Positions 8,344 to 11,870 of a stretch of DNA of 64,000 nucleotides are shown in pieces (positions within the stretch are counted from its first letter, which is position 1; every line of letters starts with the position of its first letter). The stretch comes from an uncultured Gemmatimonadales bacterium. Lineage in GTDB: Bacteria; Gemmatimonadota; Gemmatimonadetes; Longimicrobiales; RSA9. A program made the translations under genes and the position numbers. The notes under the pieces are model-generated. The model saw only the letters and a list, made by a program, of their open reading frames with translations. It was not told the DNA's origin and did no database searches. The stretch is from NCBI GenBank assembly GCA_963798845.1, contig CAWCUS010000002.1, forward strand, positions 704,001 through 768,000. The letters are read 5' to 3'.

Positions 8344-8712
8344 ATGATCCAGCAGGAGTCGATGGTCCGGATCGCCGACAACAGCGGCGCCAAGCAGGCG
8401 AAGTGCATACGCGTGCTCGGCGGCTCGCGGCGGCGTTACGCCCGCGTGGGCGACGTCATCGTGGTGGCGGTGAAGGACGCGCTGCCCGATGGCACGGTGA
8501 AGAAGGGGGAAGTGGCGAAGGCGGTGGTGGTGCGCACGGCGAAGGAAATGCGTCGCAAGGATGGCAGCTACATCCGGTTCGACGACAACGCGGCCGTGAT
8601 CATCAACGACGCCGGCGAGCCGCGCGCGACGCGCATCTTCGGCCCCGTGGGCCGGGAGCTCCGCGAGAAGCGCTTCATGAAGATCGTGTCGCTGGCCCCG
8701 GAGGTGATCTGA
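8344..8712 (+). CDS. rplN: 50S ribosomal protein L14
   Basis: [31 protein letters not shown]. Confidence 0.98.
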
Positions 8713-9095
8713 TGCCGCGTTTCATGCCGGGGATGCACCGGGCGACCGGGGGCAAGAAGAAGGCAGGCAAGATGGGCGTCCGGCGGGGAGACCGGGTGAA
8801 GGTGATCCGGGGCAACTTCGCCGGAACGGAGGGGACCGTGCTGCGGGTGCTGCCGAAGGAGAACCGGATCGTGGTGGAGGGAGTGAACATCCGCAAGCAC
8901 CACGCGCGCCCGACGGAGCAGAATCCCGAGGGCGGGATCATGGAGTACGAGGAGCCGATCCACGCGTCCAACGTGCTGCTCATCGACCCGAGCACAGGCG
9001 AGCCGACGCGCGTTCGATACCGCGTGGAGGACGACGGGACGAAGGAGCGGATCTCGGCGAAGAGCGGGAATCCGATCCCGAAGGCGCAGGACTGA
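8712..9095 (+). CDS. rplX: 50S ribosomal protein L24 with possible N-terminal extension
   Basis: KOW motif [27 protein letters not shown] overlaps the rplN stop. Confidence 0.96.
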
Positions 9096-9111
9096 GGAGA
9101 GCTCGAGAGCA

Positions 9112-9705
9112 ATGAAGCCGAGACTGCAGAAGCATTACGAGGAGCGGGTCACGCCGCGGCTCATGGACGAGTTCGAGTTCGACAACCCGTACCGCGTCCC
9201 GCGGCTCGAGAAGATCGTGCTCAACGTCGGCATGGGCGAGGCGGCGAGAAACCCGAAGCTGCTGGACGTGGTGGTGGACGAGCTGGGGCAGATCACCGGT
9301 CAGAAGCCCGTGGTGACGAAGGCCCGGAAGTCCATCTCGAACTTCGGGCTGCGCGAGAACATGCCCGTGGGGGCGAAGGTCACGCTCCGGCGGCAGCGCA
9401 TGTACGAGTTCCTGGATCGCCTGGTCAACGTGGCGATGCCGCGGATCCGCGACTTCCGCGGGCTGCCGACGCGCGCGTTCGACGGCCGGGGCAACTACAC
9501 GATGGGCGTGAAGGAGCAGCTGATCTTCCCGGAGATCGAGTACGACAAGGTGGAAACCATGCATGGCATGGACATCGTGCTGGTCACCAGCACCGACAAG
9601 GACGACGAGGCGTTCGCGCTCCTGCGCGAAATGGGGCTGCCCTTCCGGGGCGGCACGCCGGTCGTGGTCGGGGGTGAGGACATCGCCGGCCCGGCGGAGG
9701 AATAG
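9112..9705 (+). CDS. rplE: 50S ribosomal protein L5
   Basis: [33 protein letters not shown]. Confidence 0.98.
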
Positions 9706-9713
9706 GGGAGCGC

Positions 9714-9905
9714 ATGGCACGCAAGTCACAGTTGGAGAAGCAGCGGAACCCGAAGCGGCTCAAGTACTCGGTGCGGCAGAACAACCGGTGCAACCGGTGT
9801 GGCCGCGCGCGGGCGTACTACCGGAAGTTCGGCATATGCCGGATCTGTTTCCGGGAGATGGCGCTGAAAGGCGAGATCCCCGGGGTTCGCAAGGCGAGCT
9901 GGTGA
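9714..9905 (+). CDS. rpsZ: 30S ribosomal protein S14, short zinc-binding type
   Basis: RCNRCGR...GICRICFRE...PGVRKASW; 63 aa. Confidence 0.97.
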
Positions 9906-9938
9906 GCGAGATTCGAAGTTCGAGCTTCGGATTTCGAA

Positions 9939-9986
9939 CTTCTACAAGTCCGGCACGCGAGAGCGGACGGCCGGATACTATAGGAG
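9939..9986 (+). promoter_or_regulatory. Putative S8-binding ribosomal leader (16S helix-21 mimic)
   Basis: AAGTCCGGC (9946-9954) pairs with GCCGGATACT (9970-9979), reproducing the AAGUC...GAUACU core of the 16S S8 site; directly upstream of rpsH. Confidence 0.6.
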
Positions 9987-9999
9987 CAGGTGAACGAAC

Positions 10000-10392
10000 A
10001 TGATGACAGACCCTATCGCCGACATGCTGGCGCGGGTCCGCAACGCATCGCGAGCGGGCCATCGACGCGTGGACATGCCGGTGTCGAAGCTGAAGGCGGA
10101 GATCGCGCGCATCCTCAAGGAGAACTCCTTCATCCACGACTTCAAGGTCCTGGATGACGGGCGCCACGGGGTGCTGCGGATCTATCTCAAGTATCACGAA
10201 GGGCAGTCTGTGATCCGGGACATCCAGCGGATGTCGCGGCCGGGCCGGCGGCAGTATGCGGGCGTGGGCGGCCTGCCGCGGGTCCGCAACGGCCTGGGCA
10301 TGGCCATCGTTTCCACCTCGCGCGGGGTGATGAGTGACCGCGAGGCGCGTGCGCAGAACGTCGGCGGCGAGATCCTCGCCGCGCTCTGGTAG
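10000..10392 (+). CDS. rpsH: 30S ribosomal protein S8
   Basis: TDPIADMLARVRNA, SRPGRR, GLGMAIVSTSRGV. Confidence 0.98.
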   Translation: MMTDPIADMLARVRNASRAGHRRVDMPVSKLKAEIARILKENSFIHDFKVLDDGRHGVLRIYLKYHEGQSVIRDIQRMSRPGRRQYAGVGGLPRVRNGLGMAIVSTSRGVMSDREARAQNVGGEILAALW

Positions 10393-10400
10393 GGGGGACG

Positions 10401-10937
10401 ATGTCGAGAATCGGGAAGGCGCCGATCGAGCTCCCGAAGGGCGTGGAAGTGACGGTGGACGGGAGCGTGGTGCGCGTGAAGGGTCCGAAGGGTGAGCTGG
10501 AGCAGCACATCCGTCCCGAGGTCGGAGTGTCGATCGAGGATGGGCGGGTCGTGGTGACGCGGGCAGCGGACAGCAAGCGGCACCGCGCGTATCACGGCCT
10601 GACGCGGGCGCTGGTGGCGAACATGGTGCAGGGCGTGACGGCCGGGTTCCGGAAGGGGCTCGAGATCGTGGGCGTGGGCTACCGCGCGGACAAGCGTGGG
10701 GGCACGCTGGTGCTCAACGTCGGGTACTCGCACGACGTGCAGTACCCGGAGCCGGAAGGGATCACGATCACCACGCCGAACCAGACGACGATCGTGGTGG
10801 AAGGGATCGACAAGCAGAAGGTCGGCCAGGTCGCGGCGGAGCTGCGGGCCGTGCGGCCGCCCGAGCCGTACAAGGGCAAGGGCATCCGCTACCAGGGTGA
10901 ACAGGTCCGCCGCAAGGCGGGCAAGACGGGCGCATAG
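10401..10937 (+). CDS. rplF: 50S ribosomal protein L6
   Basis: MSRIGKAPI, RPPEPYKGKGIRY. Confidence 0.99.
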   Translation: MSRIGKAPIELPKGVEVTVDGSVVRVKGPKGELEQHIRPEVGVSIEDGRVVVTRAADSKRHRAYHGLTRALVANMVQGVTAGFRKGLEIVGVGYRADKRGGTLVLNVGYSHDVQYPEPEGITITTPNQTTIVVEGIDKQKVGQVAAELRAVRPPEPYKGKGIRYQGEQVRRKAGKTGA

Positions 10938-10946
10938 AGGTCAGCC

Positions 10947-11330
10947 ATGGCGGGAAGACAGAAGACGAGCCGACGAGAGACGCAGCGTGTGCGTCGTCAT
11001 CAGCGGGTCCGGCGCAAGGTCGAAGGCTCGGCGGAGCGGCCGCGCCTGGTGGTTCACCGGTCGCTCAAGCACATGCACGGGCAGATCGTGGACGATCGGA
11101 GCGGACGCGTCCTGATGGGCGTGTCCACGACCGGGCCGGAGCTGAGGGCGTTGCGCGGCGAGGCCGAGATCGACAAGACGAAGCTGAGCCACGAGGCGGG
11201 CAAGCGGATCGCGACCCTGGCGAAGGAAGCCGGGATCGAGACCGTGGTGTTCGACCGGGGCGGCTACCTCTATCACGGCCGCGTGGCGGCCTTCGCCGAA
11301 GGCGCCCGCGAAGGCGGCCTGAAGTTCTAA
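10947..11330 (+). CDS. rplR: 50S ribosomal protein L18
   Basis: [23 protein letters not shown]. Confidence 0.98.
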
Positions 11331-11342
11331 GGAGACGCGAGG

Positions 11343-11870
11343 ATGGCGAGAGACAATCGAGGCGGTCGCCGGGGGCGGCAGGAATCCGATCTCACGGAGA
11401 CCGTGATCCACATCAACCGCGTCGCGAAGGTGGTGAAGGGCGGCCGCCGCTTCTCCTTCAGTGCGCTCGTGGCAGTGGGCGACAAGAAGGGGAAGGTCGG
11501 GATCGCCCTCGGCAAGGCCAACGAGGTGGCCGAGGCCATCCGCAAGGGGATGGACCAGGCGCGCAAGGCCATGGAGCACGTGCCCATGATCGAGGGCACC
11601 GTTCCGCACGAGATCGTGGGCCGGGTGGGCGCGGCCAGGGTGCTGCTCAAGCCGGCGGGCCCGGGGACCGGCGTGATCGCCGGCGGTGCCGTGCGCGCGG
11701 TGCTCGAGGCGGCCGGGTACACCGACGTGCTGACGAAGAGCCTGGGGTCGAACAACCCGGTGAACACGGCGCGGGCCACCATGCGCGGGCTGGACACCAT
11801 GGTGACGGCGGAGCAGGTGGCCAGCGAGCGCGGCGTGGCGGTGGCGGATCTGGAGGTGCGGCATGGCTAA
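11343..11870 (+). CDS. rpsE: 30S ribosomal protein S5
   Basis: [28 protein letters not shown]. Confidence 0.99.

Follow-up and report, generated by a model that had tools for sequence, protein, structure and literature searches.

A conserved hairpin between rpsZ and rpsH in Gemmatimonadota resembles the S8-binding site of 16S helix 21 and is a candidate S8 operator

The stretch of DNA analysed here, 64,000 nucleotides (nt) of a contig from an uncultured Gemmatimonadales bacterium (referred to below as the window), contains the ribosomal gene row rpsC, rplP, rpmC, rpsQ, rplN, rplX, rplE, rpsZ and rpsH, followed by rplF, rplR, rpsE, rpmD, rplO and secY, and its rpsZ–rpsH spacer encodes an RNA hairpin that we describe as a candidate operator for ribosomal protein S8, the product of rpsH. 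According to the list of open reading frames, rpsZ (9714-9905, + strand), on the 5' side of the spacer, codes for a short, zinc-type S14 of 63 amino acids; when this protein is used in tblastn, the same gene is found 5' of the hairpin motif in relatives. On the other side, rpsH (10000-10392, + strand) codes for S8 (130 amino acids), which we presume to be the regulator, with rpsH as the presumed first regulated gene. Over its whole length, the product of rpsH can be aligned with bacterial S8 chains of solved structure (best 3j9w_AH, E 2.7e-42), and it retains the S-T-S stretch, as VSTS; the encoded protein is an ordinary full-length S8. The spacer is 94 nt long, while all the other gaps in the gene row measure about 20 nt or less; in the same list rplE (9112-9705) starts at 9112, 16 nt after rplX, and rplF occupies 10401-10937. 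No promoter-like or terminator-like site was found in 8600-10500, and the operator is therefore probably internal to a polycistronic operon transcript.

The conserved hairpin as a whole covers 9939-9986 (+ strand, like all its parts) and is compact, with 48 nt. Its lower helix is formed by CUUCUA (9939-9944) and UAGGAG (9981-9986), which pair with a probability of 0.92-0.99, and the 3' strand of this helix includes AGGAG (9982-9986), which resembles a Shine–Dalgarno (SD) sequence. The S8-type internal loop follows, in which the core strands are AAGUC (9946-9950) and GAUACU (9974-9979); the longer stretches to which they belong read AAGTCCGGC at 9946-9954 and GCCGGATACT at 9970-9979. The upper helix is made of UCCGGC (9949-9954) and GCCGGA (9970-9975), and it carries the tip CGC-GAGA-GCG (9956-9965), in place of which relatives have other loops or stems that differ in length and sequence. 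The loop is thus flanked on both sides by a helix of 6 base pairs (bp), the upper one being continued by the tip.

The minimum free energy (MFE) of 9903-10010, calculated with RNAfold, is -37.5 kcal/mol (z = -4.0), and none of 200 shuffled sequences folds as well. The corresponding structure consists of two independent hairpins, 9907-9919/9924-9936 and the operator, the latter with both helices and the GAGA-capped tip; in this fold the upper helix spans 9948/9-9954 with 9970-9975/6 and the internal loop is asymmetric. RNAalifold, applied to 23 relatives, independently predicts the same two helices. The preliminary description of this DNA had placed the core at 9946-9954 and 9970-9979, the tip at 9956-9965, CTTCTA at 9939-9944 opposite TAGGAG at 9981-9986, and a further hairpin at 9915-9942, and all these letters and positions are correct.

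The S8 site of 16S helix 21, whose core numbering and roles we take from the accessible part of PMC4176348, is described there as a helix interrupted by seven conserved loop nucleotides. According to the same part of this source, the site contains an A595-(A596-U644) triple, residue 641 is in association with the G597-C643 pair, the invariant A642 is stacked on S8's conserved S-T-S peptide, and the rRNA of Thermus has the variant G595-(C596-G644). In the window, AAGUC corresponds to 595-599 and GAUACU to 639-644: A9946 is the equivalent of 595, A9947-U9979 of 596-644, G9948-C9978 of 597-643, U9949-A9975 of 598-640, C9950-G9974 of 599-639, U9976 of 641 and A9977 of 642. The Watson–Crick pair 596-644 (A9947-U9979) with the unpaired purine that precedes it (A9946), the G597-C643 pair, the unpaired residue 641 and the invariant A642 thus all have their equivalents, and the internal loop with the equivalents of 595-597 and 641-644 flanked by that of 598-640, which is typical of the E. 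coli S8 operator, is also present. The view that the spacer holds a mimic of the helix 21 site directly before rpsH, already expressed in the preliminary description, holds good: the AAGUC/GAUACU loop matches the S8-binding core and is conserved.

The leader and helix 21 have in common the strand order, the asymmetric loop, the kept positions (equivalents of 595-599 and 639-644) and the two flanking helices. They differ in that the leader is part of an mRNA, that its lower 3' strand is an SD-like sequence, that a C.A mismatch lies under the core, and that the tip is short and variable. When a covariance model of the leader (R1) was run with filters off on ten 16S loci and on the E. coli locus, the best match was helix 21 in the 16S rRNA of a relative (G025; 13.5 bits, E 0.13).

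A search with the S8 protein found S8 in 38 of 41 related genomes and returned 30 loci, 23 of which have the motif between rpsZ and rpsH. By coded family, it occurs in 17/19 loci of f1, including that of the window (15/16 without the three unpublished genomes G016, G017 and G020), in 6/6 of f3 and in 0/5 of f2. The unpublished genomes G016, G017, G020 and G026 contribute rows or counts and no conclusion depends on them; a further one, G097, contributes only to an S8 tally among additional genomes of the phylum. In the alignment of the 23 relatives found via the protein (A1, 23 rows, of which two belong to unpublished genomes), both AGUCCG and CGGAUACU show no variation, nor do the equivalents of G597-C643 and A642, and the tip is gapped and varies in length and sequence.

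Model R1 has exactly one match in the genome of the window and one match per genome in 16 of 151 genomes of the phylum; all 15 matches in genomes other than that of the window lie between rpsZ and rpsH. By family, R1 has matches in 2/2 genomes of f3 and 13/31 of f5; f2 (0/16), f4 (0/71) and f6 to f12 have none. The upstream regions of rpsH from 60 further genomes of the phylum were also fetched and read, and an anchored pairing rule (see below) adds 13 genomes of f5, which brings the total for this family to 26/31. In f4, the spacers measure 10-25 nt and the motif was absent from the 14/14 genera read; none of the five f2 spacers read has it; f6, f7 and f9 have short spacers without the motif, and f8 and f10 to f12 have longer spacers in which no core is recognisable. 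The element is therefore common in two orders of Gemmatimonadota and was not found in the remaining families searched. A variant is seen in two f5 loci of one genus (L188 and L199): it reads AGGCC...GGAACC, with C-G at the 598/640 equivalent as in the 16S rRNA of the family itself, and lies between helices of the GGAUG/CAUCC type about 25 nt 5' of the ribosome-binding site (RBS), which it does not overlap.

The pattern used to scan named records had GTCC, GGAWAC, RGRR and the initial codons of rpsH as its fixed parts, and at least 118 stretches matched. Among the matches listed, 104/118 have the genes of S14 and S8 next to them, and the other 14 are chance matches with no S8 gene beside them. 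Again among the matches listed, 86 of these 104 are nearly all labelled Gemmatimonadota, two being labelled only 'bacterium'; the labels include Gemmatimonadaceae, Gemmatimonadales, Longimicrobiales, Roseisolibacter and Gemmatimonas, and the form of the window, AAGUCCGG...CCGGAUACU, includes records labelled Longimicrobiales. A match in Ignavibacterium (L139) was left out as doubtful, with A opposite A at 596/644, and another one (L125) failed the pairing rule, its loop being too short.

The pairing rule was applied to 149 regions (30 from the relatives, 15 model matches, 86 pattern matches and 18 fetched f5 regions); it recovers the motif in 136 of them, which gives 125 distinct segments. The pair equivalent to 596/644 is C-G in 63 segments, A-U in 36, G-C in 22 and A.C in 4, that is, 121 standard pairs of three types, and the residue equivalent to 595 is A in 102, G in 20 and C in 3. 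The lower-helix pair nearest to the loop is A-U in 69, C-G in 22, G-C in 20, U.G in 5 and G.U in 2, with a mismatch in 7. The scan pattern set no condition on the 596/644 pair or on the lower helix's 5' strand. It constrained the other core positions in 86/149 regions, and this has to be kept in mind when reading that the equivalents of G597-C643 and A642 are found in 125/125 segments, that C599 is also invariant, that 598/640 is U-A in 123 and C-G in 2, and that 641 is U in 108 and A in 17.

In a larger alignment (A2, 64 rows), which was fitted to the model and leans towards it, 94.8% of the cells are paired and 9/14 pairs change on both sides; its covariation score is 0.274 compared to 0.090 +/- 0.009 for shuffled alignments, a score that 0/500 shuffles reach, and all slid controls are far lower. 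In the 23 relatives, 96.8% of the cells are paired in the S8-type structure, which again 0/500 shuffles reach. The element is a genuine RNA, with both conservation and covariation. The comparison proposed in the preliminary description, namely whether AAGUC/GAUAC is kept in relatives and whether the helices covary, thus has a positive outcome.

The motif is not confined to Gemmatimonadota. Among the matches listed, 17 come from Actinomycetota (Nocardioides, Marmoricola, Nocardioidaceae, a Nanopelagicales metagenome-assembled genome (MAG), an 'Acidimicrobiales' MAG and unclassified MAGs). The actinobacterial form reads CUG-A-AGGUC(C/G)...GAAACC-A-CAG, followed by a purine-rich stretch, and there is covariation in its lower helix, which is CCG/CGG in L080 and has a 5-bp variant in L133. 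A second covariance model (R2) finds one match each in 5/5 named genomes and in 101/121 genomes of the order around Nocardioides, and 14/14 of the loci checked in this order lie between the genes of S14 and S8. In a phylum-wide sample of Actinomycetota, R2 has a match in 0 of the other 150 genomes, which shows that, with this model, the actinobacterial form is not phylum-wide. An S8-type core before rpsH is thus present in an independent second lineage, in at least one actinobacterial order.

Among 30 sampled loci from the class Clostridia, the spacers are mostly short and plain. Two of these loci (L275 and L278) have, about 45 nt before rpsH, complementary helices that enclose an A-GGUGG...CCAAACC loop; these sites differ from the leader of the window in that the core has other letters (G-C at 599/639) and lies outside the RBS. 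We also note that in a MAG labelled Deinococcales (L267), GUCCGUC...GACGGAUACG directly after the S14 gene forms a hairpin that resembles the S8 core, with A.G at the equivalent of 596/644, and is followed by a second hairpin which contains GAUACC.

The core letters alone are not informative. The pattern AAGTC-N(8-38)-GAWACT occurs once in the window, for an expectation of 0.17, and 15/100 shuffled sequences have at least one occurrence; in the whole genome there are 6 matches, compared to 7 for the reversed control. Since the bare core letters occur at chance frequency, the weight rests on the flanking helices, the position and the conservation. As a matter of fact, when the six genomic matches are inspected by eye, the upper helix continues only in 16S helix 21 and in the rpsH leader, and in the remaining four it is broken within at most 4 pairs. 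One bare-core match of the genome (G000:C6:274075-274097, AAGUCCUCCAGGGAAAGGAAACU) could form an upper helix of 4 bp.

The chance frequency of the core is what speaks for an explanation in which the conserved element has nothing to do with S8, being instead, for instance, a site where RNase III or RNase E acts, an insulator that separates cistrons or the site of another protein, with a coincidental likeness to helix 21. We consider this very unlikely, because the features named for recognition by S8 are all retained jointly in more than 100 genomes, whereas the tip and the flanks drift, and because the changes observed (C-G or G-C at 596/644, U or A at 641) are such as natural S8 sites tolerate. 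Moreover, the element always precedes the S8 gene, in two phyla, and the continuation of the upper helix singles out helix 21 and the leader among the six genomic core matches.

Another idea, that the core of the mRNA tracks the helix 21 of each genome's own 16S rRNA, was rejected and dropped as support. Helix 21 was read in 18 genomes. That of the genome of the window is AAGUC...GAAACU, which differs from the leader at the 641 equivalent, where the rRNA has an A; in the 16S rRNAs of f1, f2 and f3 genomes, AAGUC is combined with either GAUACU or GAAACU. In most f5 genomes it reads AAGCG...CGAACU, with C-G at 598/640 and A-U at 596/644, whereas in the leaders of f5 the 598/640 pair remains U-A and 596/644 is C-G or G-C. 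The leader is therefore not a copy of the host's rRNA. The G597-C643 pair and A642 are kept in both the rRNA and the leader RNA, which fits with a leader that would be shaped by what S8 recognises rather than copied from the rRNA gene.

The position of the element relative to the start of rpsH bears on its function. The 16S rRNA of the genome of the window ends in ...CACCUCCUUU, which is complementary to the UAGGAG strand that bears AGGAG. In the window, AGGAG lies in the lower helix and ends 13 nt before the AUG at 10000; its unpaired probability is 0.002-0.027 (0.002-0.075 for the whole of UAGGAG, 9981-9986). A second SD-like sequence, AGGUG (9988-9992, + strand), 7 nt before the start codon, is just outside the helix and partly unpaired in the ensemble; it is present in the genome of the window and in L003 and absent from most relatives. 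The burial of the SD sequence proposed in the preliminary description can therefore be retained for AGGAG, which is inside the lower helix, and not for the RBS as a whole, which is only partly buried since AGGUG is outside.

Among the 120 segments with a resolvable start codon, an SD-like tetramer is found in the helix only in 68, both in the helix and downstream (the situation in the window) in 34, downstream only in 13 and nowhere in 5, so that it lies within the 3' strand in 102/120, a count that is biased upwards by the RGRR of the pattern; nearly all of the 23 relatives, which are free of this bias, read UAGGAG. In these 120 segments, 6-27 nt separate the end of the helix from the start codon, the mode being 12-13. 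With the end of the helix so close to the start codon and an SD-like sequence in its 3' strand, an S8-bound hairpin would sit in the region that is occupied by the 30S subunit. Occlusion of the 30S subunit is, from these positions, the most likely mechanism.

We therefore propose as the most likely role of the hairpin that S8 uses it to switch off its own synthesis. When S8 is in excess of free 16S rRNA, it would bind to the internal loop, comprising A9946, A9947-U9979, G9948-C9978 and U9949-A9975, with U9976 and A9977 unpaired. Binding would lock the 6-bp lower helix that carries AGGAG, 13 nt ahead of the AUG, so that the 30S subunit could not load on rpsH, and the synthesis of the products of the tightly packed genes rplF, rplR, rpsE, rpmD and rplO would probably fall too, via translational coupling. 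On balance, we think it probable that 9939-9986 is a translational operator for S8 within a polycistronic, spc-type mRNA, which reproduces the docking site of helix 21. The binding of S8, the repression and the coupling to the downstream genes are what we infer from the sequences; the structure itself, the fact that it is conserved and covaries, its fixed position ahead of rpsH and the identity of its loop with the S8 core are observations.

Several of these observations weigh against the proposal that S8 represses rpsH through this operator. The motif is missing from f2, f4 and f6 to f12, which means that S8 control at rpsH is dispensable. The fixed GTCC, GGAWAC and RGRR make the invariance in 86/149 regions partly a result of selection by the pattern, the covariation in A2 comes from an alignment that leans towards the model, and the 596/644 equivalent is a non-standard A.C in 4/125 segments. 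The mimic does not follow the rRNA of its own cell, as is seen from the GAAACU of the window's genome and from the f5 differences at 598/640 and 596/644; we do not hold this mismatch against S8 binding, because both RNAs keep the S8 determinants. Regarding initiation, AGGUG is outside the helix and better spaced than AGGAG, which leaves the RBS of the window only partly buried, and the segments in which the SD-like sequence is only downstream (13/120) or lacking (5) indicate that simple burial of the SD sequence is not the whole mechanism everywhere.

These last segments could also be explained if S8 binds to the hairpin with a consequence other than a block of initiation, namely an altered decay or processing of the mRNA at the rpsZ–rpsH junction, or the capture of nascent S8 for assembly. 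The SD-like sequence outside the helix in 13/120 segments, the sites of L188 and L199 about 25 nt 5' of the RBS and the similar sites about 45 nt before rpsH in the two Clostridia loci are all compatible with such an output, and processing and retroregulation of the spc mRNA are described for E. coli in the accessible parts of PMC10931766 and PMC3616713. We nevertheless judge it unlikely, since the 102/120 segments with an SD-like tetramer in the 3' strand and a helix end 9-16 nt before the start codon have the classical geometry of occlusion, and no nuclease site is readable in the sequence.

The other hairpin of the MFE structure, 9907-9936 (+ strand), has 13 pairs and a UCGA loop. It is lineage-specific and lies outside the conserved operator: alone it folds with -16.8 kcal/mol and pair probabilities of 0.90-0.997, and its register, 9907-9919/9924-9936, leaves CUUCUA free for the lower helix. 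A similar sequence is found only in L003, from the same genus, and the other relatives have unrelated hairpins or none. Outside the genus, no sequence is conserved in the spacer 5' of the operator, which in relatives lies 3 to 203 nt (median 60) from the rpsZ stop codon. The hypothesis that a minimum distance serves as a buffer against terminating ribosomes was rejected, the distances going down to 3-7 nt.

The preliminary description had proposed a different pairing in this region, a hairpin with the arms GAAGTTCGA (9915-9923) and TCGAACTTC (9934-9942), which would compete with the lower helix for CUUC, S8 shifting the balance of a two-state, riboswitch-like device. The complementarity between GAAGUUCGA and UCGAACUUC is real and overlaps the CUUC of the lower helix, and L003 has a similar sequence. 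However, the competing fold (hairpin 9915-9942 plus the upper helix) has an energy of -25.8 kcal/mol, compared to -37.0 for the coexisting hairpins (9907-9936 and the full operator), and is thus 11.2 kcal/mol worse; the pair probabilities of the 9915-9942 hairpin are about 0, and the variable upstream spacer often contains unrelated hairpins or nothing outside the genus. The energy gap, the pair probabilities and the unconserved spacer lead us to reject the two-state device, which is highly improbable, and the hairpin 9907-9936 is not part of the mechanism.

Many relatives (L004, L017, L024, L026, L188, L196, L199, L202 and L203) have long hairpins between the rpsZ stop codon and the operator; the arms of these hairpins consist of units of about 7-8 nt repeated in tandem and of the complements of these units, and the sequences are unrelated between lineages. 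The hairpin of the window, with TTCGAAG/TTCGAGC/TTCGGAT/TTCGAAC, resembles a short version of these tandem-repeat hairpins. It does not belong to a repeat family of the window: an inverted-repeat scan gave 21 pairs, none of which is alike (9907-9936 itself is not among them).

The known S8 operator is that of the spc operon of E. coli. In the accessible text of PMC3616713, the RNA that interacts with S8 is located at the start of rplE, with bulged A8 and A9 and a G12-C79 pair, and is said to be narrowly distributed in Gammaproteobacteria; the part of PMC4176348 mentioned above gives the triple A+80-(A+81-U+11). In rplE of E. coli K-12, nt 6-11 are GAAACU and nt 80-84 are AAGUC; these positions agree with the published numbering, and the order of the strands is therefore opposite to that of helix 21 and of the element described here. 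The rpsN–rpsH spacer of E. coli K-12 measures 33 nt and has no such motif.

Insofar as the E. coli operator is described in these sources, the two elements are alike in being mRNA mimics of the helix 21 core in the spc gene row, with S8 as the presumed ligand in the window, and in having a conserved internal loop and a variable distal stem and overlapping the ribosome-binding region. They differ in position, since the element of the window directly precedes the gene of the regulator itself, two genes after rplE; indeed, 9939-9986 is far from overlapping the start of rplE, at 9112. They differ in topology, since the window has the rRNA order (AAGUC 5', GAUACU 3') and E. coli has GAAACU on the 5' side and AAGUC on the 3' side; in E. 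coli the long hairpin is closed on the 594/645 side, so that the loop-closed end is on the other side of the core. Last, the element of the window is wholly non-coding, compact (48 nt) and from a different lineage. In its layout, it is like the S7 operator between rpsL and rpsG in the str operon of E. coli, which is also intercistronic and directly before the gene of its regulator; the likeness is in layout only, since another protein is involved and another rRNA site is mimicked. The accessible part of a review (PMC10931766) draws an analogy between the control by S7 and that by S8.

The leader is described neither in Rfam 15 nor in the literature searched. No Rfam 15 family matches the window at the gathering score, which answers the question about known leaders raised in the preliminary description. 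With E up to 10 in 8500-11500, the leader is still unmatched and the only hits are CRISPR-DR12 (10309-10338) and HTT-AS1_3 (9034-9063), both unrelated and at chance level; in 10 related named loci, with E up to 1, the only hit is the unrelated BASRCI414 in L092 (22.3 bits for a cut-off of 270). The main text of Eckert and Weinberg 2020 includes no S8 leader among its 20 candidates, and the accessible part of the review cited above (PMC10931766) describes S8 regulation outside E. coli-type bacteria as unknown. Searches of the full-text literature, with subscription journals outside their coverage, gave no account of an S8 leader ahead of rpsH. The candidate S8 operator at rpsH would be a new form of a known type of control, and differ in position, strand topology and lineage from the one described so far, only in E. 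coli-like bacteria and at another gene.

The sites before rpsH come from two orders of Gemmatimonadota, from the Nocardioides order of the Actinomycetota and from a few Clostridia. It is conceivable, and we suggest it tentatively, that operators at rpsH whose strands keep the native order of helix 21 are a widespread means, possibly ancient or repeatedly invented, of controlling S8 and the distal spc genes; the derived exception, and not the model, would then be the textbook operator at rplE, in which the strand order is permuted. The element is in any case a compact, testable candidate for an S8 operator, found in two phyla. It is also a natural experiment in RNA mimicry, in which the S8 determinants are kept, several positions are unlike the host's rRNA and all three Watson–Crick-type solutions occur at 596/644, and the two calibrated covariance models (R1 and R2) can seed an Rfam-style family.

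Other spacers of the phylum have features of their own. In four of the five loci of f2, a sister family, rpsZ is absent between rplE and rpsH: in these relatives (L018, L019, L021 and L022), rpsH comes directly after rplE, rpsZ was not found there by tblastn, and the spacer of about 70 nt has no S8-type motif. The rpsZ–rpsH spacers of L216-L227 (f10, from another class of the phylum) measure 120-140 nt and have GC-rich hairpins and a conserved purine-rich end; no S8 core is recognisable in them, and they may contain a different leader. In f3, the spacers of L027-L029 (and, more weakly, that of L030) show by eye TTGACG and TATCGT, separated by 18 nt, about 100 nt 5' of the motif, which suggests that rpsH may have its own promoter in these organisms.

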